The notes beneath the pieces were generated by a model. The model was not told where the DNA came from and searched no databases. It saw nothing but the letters and a program-made list of their open reading frames with translations. DNA of 64,000 bases from Shigella phage sb1: the sequence record PQ666539; one strand, given 5' to 3'. The position numbers and the translations under genes are program-made. This document shows, one piece after another, positions 575 to 3,712 of the stretch (position 1 is the stretch's first letter; the number at the start of each line of letters is the position of its first letter).

Positions 575-3712
<3,138 letters not shown>

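Follow-up and report, generated by a model that had tools for sequence, protein, structure and literature searches.

Why does the gene for the large terminase subunit of a T4-like phage carry a stop codon in the middle of its reading frame? The gene lies in a stretch of 64,000 nucleotides from the sequence record of Shigella phage sb1 (PQ666539), hereafter the window, whose own numbering is used throughout. An initial annotation, made from the sequence alone, had drawn attention to a TGA at positions 2975-2977, taking it for the first of two in-frame stops in gene 17 and naming glycine as the residue of T4 there. Such a stop might belong to the biology of the terminase or to the record in which it is written down, and the answer depends on the gene itself, on the rest of the window and on the records most closely related to it.

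The interrupted gene

Gene 17, encoding the large terminase subunit, occupies positions 1880-3712 on the plus strand and comprises 611 codons including the stop, with two in-frame stops interrupting its frame. Counted from the ATG at 1880, the TGA at 2975-2977 is indeed in frame, and a check of the coordinates leaves no sense codon at that place. It is codon 366, and it stands where GGA (Gly) would be read but for a G>T change at 2975. The second stop, which the initial annotation had also announced, is a TAA at 3461-3463 (plus strand), where codon 528 has gone from GAA (Glu) to TAA by a G>T change at 3461. Past the TGA the frame runs on to 3712 with this TAA as its single further stop, and a mechanical list of open reading frames shows the gene as three pieces (1880..2977, 2978..3463 and 3470..3712). 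As recorded, gene 17 therefore does not contain an uninterrupted frame of 610 codons, and I judge this to be an error of the record rather than a property of the gene.

The identification of the interrupted gene as gene 17 is borne out by its alignment to T4 gp17, by its nucleotide identity to the T4 gene and by its neighbours. When the protein of the window, with X at both stops, was searched against the PDB with phmmer, its residues 1-577 aligned without a gap to residues 1-577 of 3EZK_A, a T4 gp17 chain (E=0). Nucleotide identity over the gene is 94.3% to T4 (NC_000866.4), 99.2% to Escherichia phage Killian and 99.0% to UGKSEcP2, the last two being the best matches and both members of Tequatrovirus, and the gene order 16-17-18 is collinear with that of annotated relatives and of T4. 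At 1833 nt the gene has exactly the length of T4 gene 17 and of the gene in five close relatives, with no indels, and the region matches 736 phage records in which the annotation is nearly always terminase large subunit. Because the TGA cuts a protein that aligns gaplessly to T4 gp17 over residues 1-577, the stop is not a chance boundary of an open reading frame, and gp17 sequence does continue beyond it, as had been claimed. The glycine named for T4 proved correct as well: codon 366 is GGA and codon 528 is GAA in T4 (NC_000866.4), Killian, UGKSEcP2, Ec_YwIITB1, sb2 and pSs-1, and the chain 3EZK_A carries the corresponding residues G366 and E528. All that the initial annotation stated about the stop thus holds; it had offered no mechanism.

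The two stops do not stand by themselves. Between the window and Killian there are 14 differences in gene 17, of which 6 are synonymous and 8 are protein-changing transversions. Besides G366* and E528*, the latter are six missense changes unique to the window, all given for the plus strand: 1952 C>A (P25T), 2017 A>T (K46N), 2421 A>T (N181I), 2605 C>A (D242E), 2736 C>A (T286K) and 2860 T>G (D327E). All eight hit residues that are invariant in T4 and the five relatives. T286K (window 2734-2736) falls in the ATPase domain of gp17, where the T4 sequence IIITTTPNG reads IIITKTPNG in the window. The TTT stretch around T286 is presumably the ATPase coupling motif, and the change is another sign that gene 17 as recorded could not function. 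Gp17 ranks among the most conserved proteins of T4, and eight such odd changes in it were the reason for a check of the whole window.

Neither stop was found in any other record searched. T at 2975 is found in none of the 393 phage records that match a 61-mer with this position at its centre (best identity 60/61), and T at 3461 in none of the 469 phage records that match a 61-mer around it (best identity again 60/61). A 37-mer carrying the TGA was not found in IMG/VR, in metagenome contigs or in genome contigs, and the sole IMG/VR contig with identical flanks around 2975 has GGA.

In-frame stops across the window

Is gene 17 exceptional within the window? The RefSeq gene coordinates of pSs-1 were mapped onto the window in order to find in-frame stops, and 33 were found in about 75 mapped genes over the 64,000 nt, 26 of them in the first 50 kb and 7 between 50 and 64 kb; the matching columns of three relatives in the first 50 kb contain 0, 2 and 0. 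The 33 stops are of all three types (25 TAA, 3 TAG and 5 TGA) and replace GAA, GAG, GGA, TCA, TAC and TTA, that is, codons for Glu, Gly, Ser, Tyr and Leu. All except one came about through G>T or C>A, the exception being the TTA>TAA change in gene 23.

The stops are found in many genes, and the essential ones among these are 16, 17, 18, 22, 23, 27, 29, 48, 51, 32, 34, 35 and 36. On the plus strand, next to gene 17, gene 16 (small terminase) has TAA in place of GAA at codon 153 (1858-1860) and gene 18 (tail sheath) has TAA in place of GAA at codon 128 (4125-4127), the latter common only to Shigella phage sb2. Gene 22 has two (10042 TCA>TAA and 10312 GAA>TAA, plus strand), and gene 23, the major capsid gene, has the TAA at 11617-11619 (plus strand), the sole stop that did not come from G:C>T:A. 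There follow stops in uvsW.1 (19075), uvsY (20141, minus strand), gene 51 (21609), gene 27 (22634 TGA, and 23075), gene 29 (23897 TGA), gene 48 (25684) and a small open reading frame (27586, minus strand), and for these stops, from 19075 to 27588, the ancestral codon is GAA, GGA, TAC or TCA in all three relatives. Further along, on the minus strand, stops interrupt alt (29449 TAG), small open reading frames (35336, 39687 and 43017), alc (43196 and 43382 TAG), rnlA (43665, 44238, 44391 TGA) and nrdA (48397 and 48400); in nrdA two adjacent GAA codons, 124 and 125 (48397-48402, minus strand), have both become TAA. The remaining stops are in gene 32 (53210, minus strand), gene 34 (56717, 56786, 57647 and 59156), gene 35 (60109) and gene 36 (61230), and those from 53210 to 61232 all derive from GAA, GAG or TCA via G>T or C>A.

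Apart from the stops, the genes keep their lengths and frames. The conservation of lengths, together with one frameshift in about 60 mapped genes, indicates that the error process makes substitutions only. The one frameshift is in a small open reading frame at 15039-15223 (minus strand), which measures 185 nt against 186 nt in pSs-1, where it encodes a DUF2774 protein.

Two other differences in length were noted in the window. Between genes 18 and 19, where the T4 spacer is only about 116 nt, an open reading frame of 205 residues (5763-6380, plus strand) is found that pSs-1 and Ec_YwIITB1 also have and T4 lacks. A Pfam scan of this open reading frame assigned it to no family, and it may be a mobile insertion of the sort typical of T-even genomes. 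The gene 67 region (8637-8876) matches that of Ec_YwIITB1 in length and lacks 18 nt relative to pSs-1; the difference is a natural, in-frame polymorphism of length that does not belong to the noise.

Substitution spectrum and absence of selection

The window is collinear with genes 14 to 37 of Ec_YwIITB1 (PQ356294), sb2 (PQ666540) and pSs-1 (NC_025829), at 96-97% identity. A substitution was called unique where one genome differs from three that agree, in 49,862 columns of the window and three relatives (positions 1-49,960). By this measure 213 of the unique substitutions in the window belong to the C>A/G>T class, where the relatives have 38, 40 and 21; in positions 49,970-64,000 the numbers are 80 for the window and 8, 22 and 35 for the relatives. 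Its transitions, 394 in number, are within the range of the relatives (238-405), and the other classes show only small excesses. With about 180 changes, the G:C>T:A excess affects about 1.0% of the 18,037 G:C sites in positions 1-49,960. Consistent in size with this, the G+C content of the window is 0.23-0.69 points under that of its relatives, where a loss of 1% of G:C would predict about 0.35 points. Base counts over positions 1-64000 are A = T = 20530, C = 11720 and G = 11220, all multiples of ten; this is probably a coincidence, as the regularity disappears in blocks of 8, 16 and 32 kb.

The G:C>T:A changes are spread evenly over the whole region, with 5-17 in every 2.5 kb bin independently of local natural divergence, whereas transitions vary from 4 to 43 per bin and track that divergence. 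No sequence motif was found around the C>A sites in an 11-base context (-5 to +5), the flanking bases being those of the background of all C/G sites. Oxidation induced by shearing reportedly prefers a CCG>CAG context, and this preference is not seen in the window, where 7 of 542 CCG sites (1.3%) are changed against 1.2% overall. Neither was any strand bias found on the plus strand (108 C>A and 105 G>T) or with respect to transcription, 1.15% of G and 1.22% of C on the sense strand being changed. The changes do show mild short-range clustering, with 17 close pairs where 7.4 are expected, and the adjacent stops in nrdA add to this sign; such clustering counts against a purely uniform process.

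Purifying selection has left no trace on this class of changes. In the first 50 kb the coding changes of the C>A class are 22 synonymous, 136 missense and 24 nonsense, and if every C/G site were equally likely to change, without selection, 16.3, 144.1 and 21.6 would be expected. They fall on codon positions 1, 2 and 3 in the numbers 69, 62 and 51. The other classes are mostly synonymous, as in ordinary evolution (synonymous to missense changes, T>C 176:24, C>T 111:45 and T>A 43:19). Over the whole window the missense changes of the G:C>T:A class number 177. A single substitution class, unfiltered by selection, is laid over an otherwise normal T4-like genome.

Does gene 17 call for anything beyond this? 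It has 657 G:C sites, 85 of which give a stop if changed by G:C>T:A, and at the excess rate of the window 6.6 changes and 0.85 stops would be expected in it; five G:C>T:A changes and two stops are observed. As the probability of at least two stops is 0.21, the pair in gene 17 needs no explanation specific to that gene.

Related records

The nearest relatives over the whole window include Shigella phages sb2, sb3 and sb4 (PQ666540-42) and Ec_YwIITB1 (PQ356294). Among the 49 records matching the site of the TAA at gene 18 codon 128, only sb2 (PQ666540.1) has it too, which suggests a common source or pipeline for the window and sb2 records. In sb2 gene 18 there is in addition a TGC>TGA change (C>A) at codon 608, and the annotation of sb2 splits the sheath gene at the same place. 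More generally, sb2, sb4 (PQ666542.1) and Ec_YwIITB1 (PQ356294.1) carry, in milder form, missense and nonsense changes that are unique to their lineages and look as if selection had not acted on them; the noise in sb4 and Ec_YwIITB1 is spread over several substitution classes. Their annotations are fragmented as well, in the major capsid gene, hoc and nrdB of Ec_YwIITB1 and in td and gp59 of sb4. From these sibling records it is evident that real, deposited assemblies of the clade do contain errors of this sort.

According to the paper describing these phages (PMC11993411), sb2, sb3 and sb4 are phages AKR2, CRD3 and TMC4, and PQ666539 is a fourth phage, ADG1. They came from lake water in Kolkata, and their genomes were obtained from Twist enzymatic libraries made from 50 ng, sequenced on a NovaSeq and assembled with SKESA. 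ADG1 has the lowest G+C content of the four (35.16%, the siblings having 35.35-35.52%), and its 285 proteins compare with 254-255 in AKR2 and CRD3 (PMC11993411), just as G:C>T:A noise at 1% would predict. The sibling pattern fits a real-world batch problem.

Discussion

The TGA in gene 17 is one of 33 stops that come from a window-wide, unselected excess of G:C>T:A changes; the fault therefore lies with the sequence record and not with the terminase gene, on whose biology the stop has no bearing. Very probably it is a base error in the recorded sequence and part of that layer, of the oxidised-guanine type or a similar error that makes substitutions only. A single G>T at 2975 would have converted GGA (Gly366) to TGA, and a layer affecting about 1% of G:C pairs would likewise account for the second stop in gene 17, for 30 of the 31 stops elsewhere and for the majority of the 177 missense changes, in genes that plaque formation requires. 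In the actual phage, codon 366 of gene 17 is almost certainly GGA, and the product an ordinary terminase of 610 residues.

T4 nonsense mutants in each of genes 17, 18, 22, 23, 27, 29, 48, 51, 32 and 34-36 are lethal on hosts that do not suppress them. Since such stops are lethal, a phage with the recorded sequence could not have been grown, and the record is not that of the phage that was propagated. What, then, might have produced the changes? The purity of the G>T/C>A spectrum and its freedom from indels point to 8-oxoG as the physical cause; the excess is almost entirely of the C>A/G>T class, selection has left no trace and the changes are unique to the window, as befits an oxidation artefact. 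During DNA extraction or library preparation 8-oxoG would pair with A and so give G>T and C>A. Artefacts of this type in library preparation are documented by Costello et al. (2013; PMC3616734), who describe them as having a low allelic fraction and a signature in read orientation. Changes at so low a fraction should not reach a consensus of deep coverage, and on that account oxidation as a cause needs an extra condition: the errors may have got through by way of a template bottleneck, because the effective coverage was very low, or because assembly or consensus calling went wrong. The DNA of T4 carries glucosyl-hydroxymethylcytosine, and a motif around the C>A sites would have pointed to systematic base-calling error at such modified cytosines. 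Nanopore error or error driven by modification is unlikely, given that there is no 11-base motif and there are almost no indels.

Instead of arising in the tube, the noise might have been added after sequencing, by faulty consensus or polishing, by corruption of a file or by deliberate mutation in silico. The changes are context-free, evenly spread, strand-symmetric and confined to substitutions, none of the three window proteins that were looked up has an exact match on record, and the base counts are oddly round, all of which would suit such a process. Against it, nearly all of the excess falls in a single one of the six substitution classes, a pattern typical of a chemical process and not of software, related public records show weaker versions and one error in common, and sub-blocks of the window do not have round counts. 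I regard noise of this origin as unlikely, and it would lead to the same verdict on the TGA, namely that it is not a real feature. Considerably less likely still is that the substitutions are physically real, a non-viable genome heavily mutated at G:C>T:A having been sequenced through a bottleneck of nearly a single molecule, whether from oxidatively damaged particles or after replication in a host or condition where 8-oxoG goes unrepaired. The spectrum of 8-oxoG mispairing, the lack of selection (which also fits very recent real mutations) and the mild clustering are in keeping with this, but a clone with about 1% of its G:C pairs changed and 33 nonsense codons, many in essential genes, could not be propagated, and the consensus of a population would hide mutations that differ between molecules. 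Its most extreme form is a dead hypermutated T4-like genome read from essentially one template molecule, with about 1% of guanines oxidised by the environment or by an undescribed guanine-damaging activity of the host. I keep this on the books, as a highly improbable reading, because unselected real mutations look like artefacts in a single consensus.

Could the stop instead be genuine and the terminase made regardless? Programmed readthrough, a suppressor tRNA or reassignment of TGA would allow full-length gp17 to be produced, and the frame does continue perfectly past the TGA. T-even phages, moreover, carry tRNA genes of their own, and suppressor derivatives of these are known. Yet stops of three types replace five amino acids (Glu, Gly, Ser, Tyr and Leu), so that no single decoding rule fits, none is conserved in relatives save the one in common with sb2, and 136 unselected missense changes of the same class accompany them. 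ARAGORN found no tRNA genes in the window, although a T4-like tRNA cluster would sit outside it, and comparison with relatives revealed no insertion or extra sequence at the TGA. Recoding or suppression is accordingly rejected, its probability being close to nil. The same negligible weight attaches to a natural split of gene 17 at the hinge between its domains, with an ATPase of residues 1-365 and a nuclease restarting at the ATG of TGAATG (2975-2980). Codon 366 does lie at the domain boundary, since PDB 2O0H (ATPase) covers residues 1-360 and 3C6A (nuclease) matches 356-567, and an ATG does directly follow the TGA. Met367, however, is the normal, ancestral T4 residue and so no new start, and the downstream piece is cut again by the TAA at codon 528, ahead of the conserved EEGYHDD, with removal of the C-terminal part of the nuclease. 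With no relative split, and with the stop fully accounted for by the window-wide noise, a split terminase with TGA-ATG restart is rejected too.

If the stop is an error in the record, its main relevance is to quality control. Annotation of the window as recorded would yield fragmented terminase, sheath, capsid and tail-fibre genes, inflate the gene count and add spurious 'novel' small proteins, and scans for recoding or for split genes would be misled many times over, at the second stop in gene 17 and at 31 others among the rest. The test applied here can be reused: lineage-unique substitutions are sorted by class, and their split into synonymous, missense and nonsense changes is compared with the unselected expectation, which separates noisy records from true recoding. 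The results suggest that errors of this sort are also present in several T4-like genomes of the clade that were deposited recently.

Comparison with known systems

The closest known counterpart of the interrupted gene is the large terminase gp17 of T4 (Tequatrovirus; NP_049776.1; PDB 3EZK and 3CPE), which gene 17 of the window resembles in its length, in its neighbours 16 and 18 and in aligning to it without gaps. It differs, as recorded, in G366*, E528* and the six unique missense changes, which are attributed to sequence error. With the records of sb2, sb4 and Ec_YwIITB1 the window has in common fragmented essential genes and substitutions that look unselected, but the noise in those records is weaker and none of them has the stops in gene 17. 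The 8-oxoG artefacts (PMC3616734) are likewise marked by an excess of C>A/G>T, by freedom from indels and by lack of selection; the changes in the window, unlike these, are in the consensus and not at a low allelic fraction, and they show no preference for CCG. Finally, the classical amber, ochre and opal mutants of T4 are similar to the window in that a change of a single base makes a stop in an essential late gene. Those mutants, however, are wild type apart from one or a few defined stops and can be grown on the matching suppressor host, whereas the window has 33 stops of three kinds, together with about 180 missense changes, in the background of a Tequatrovirus other than T4.
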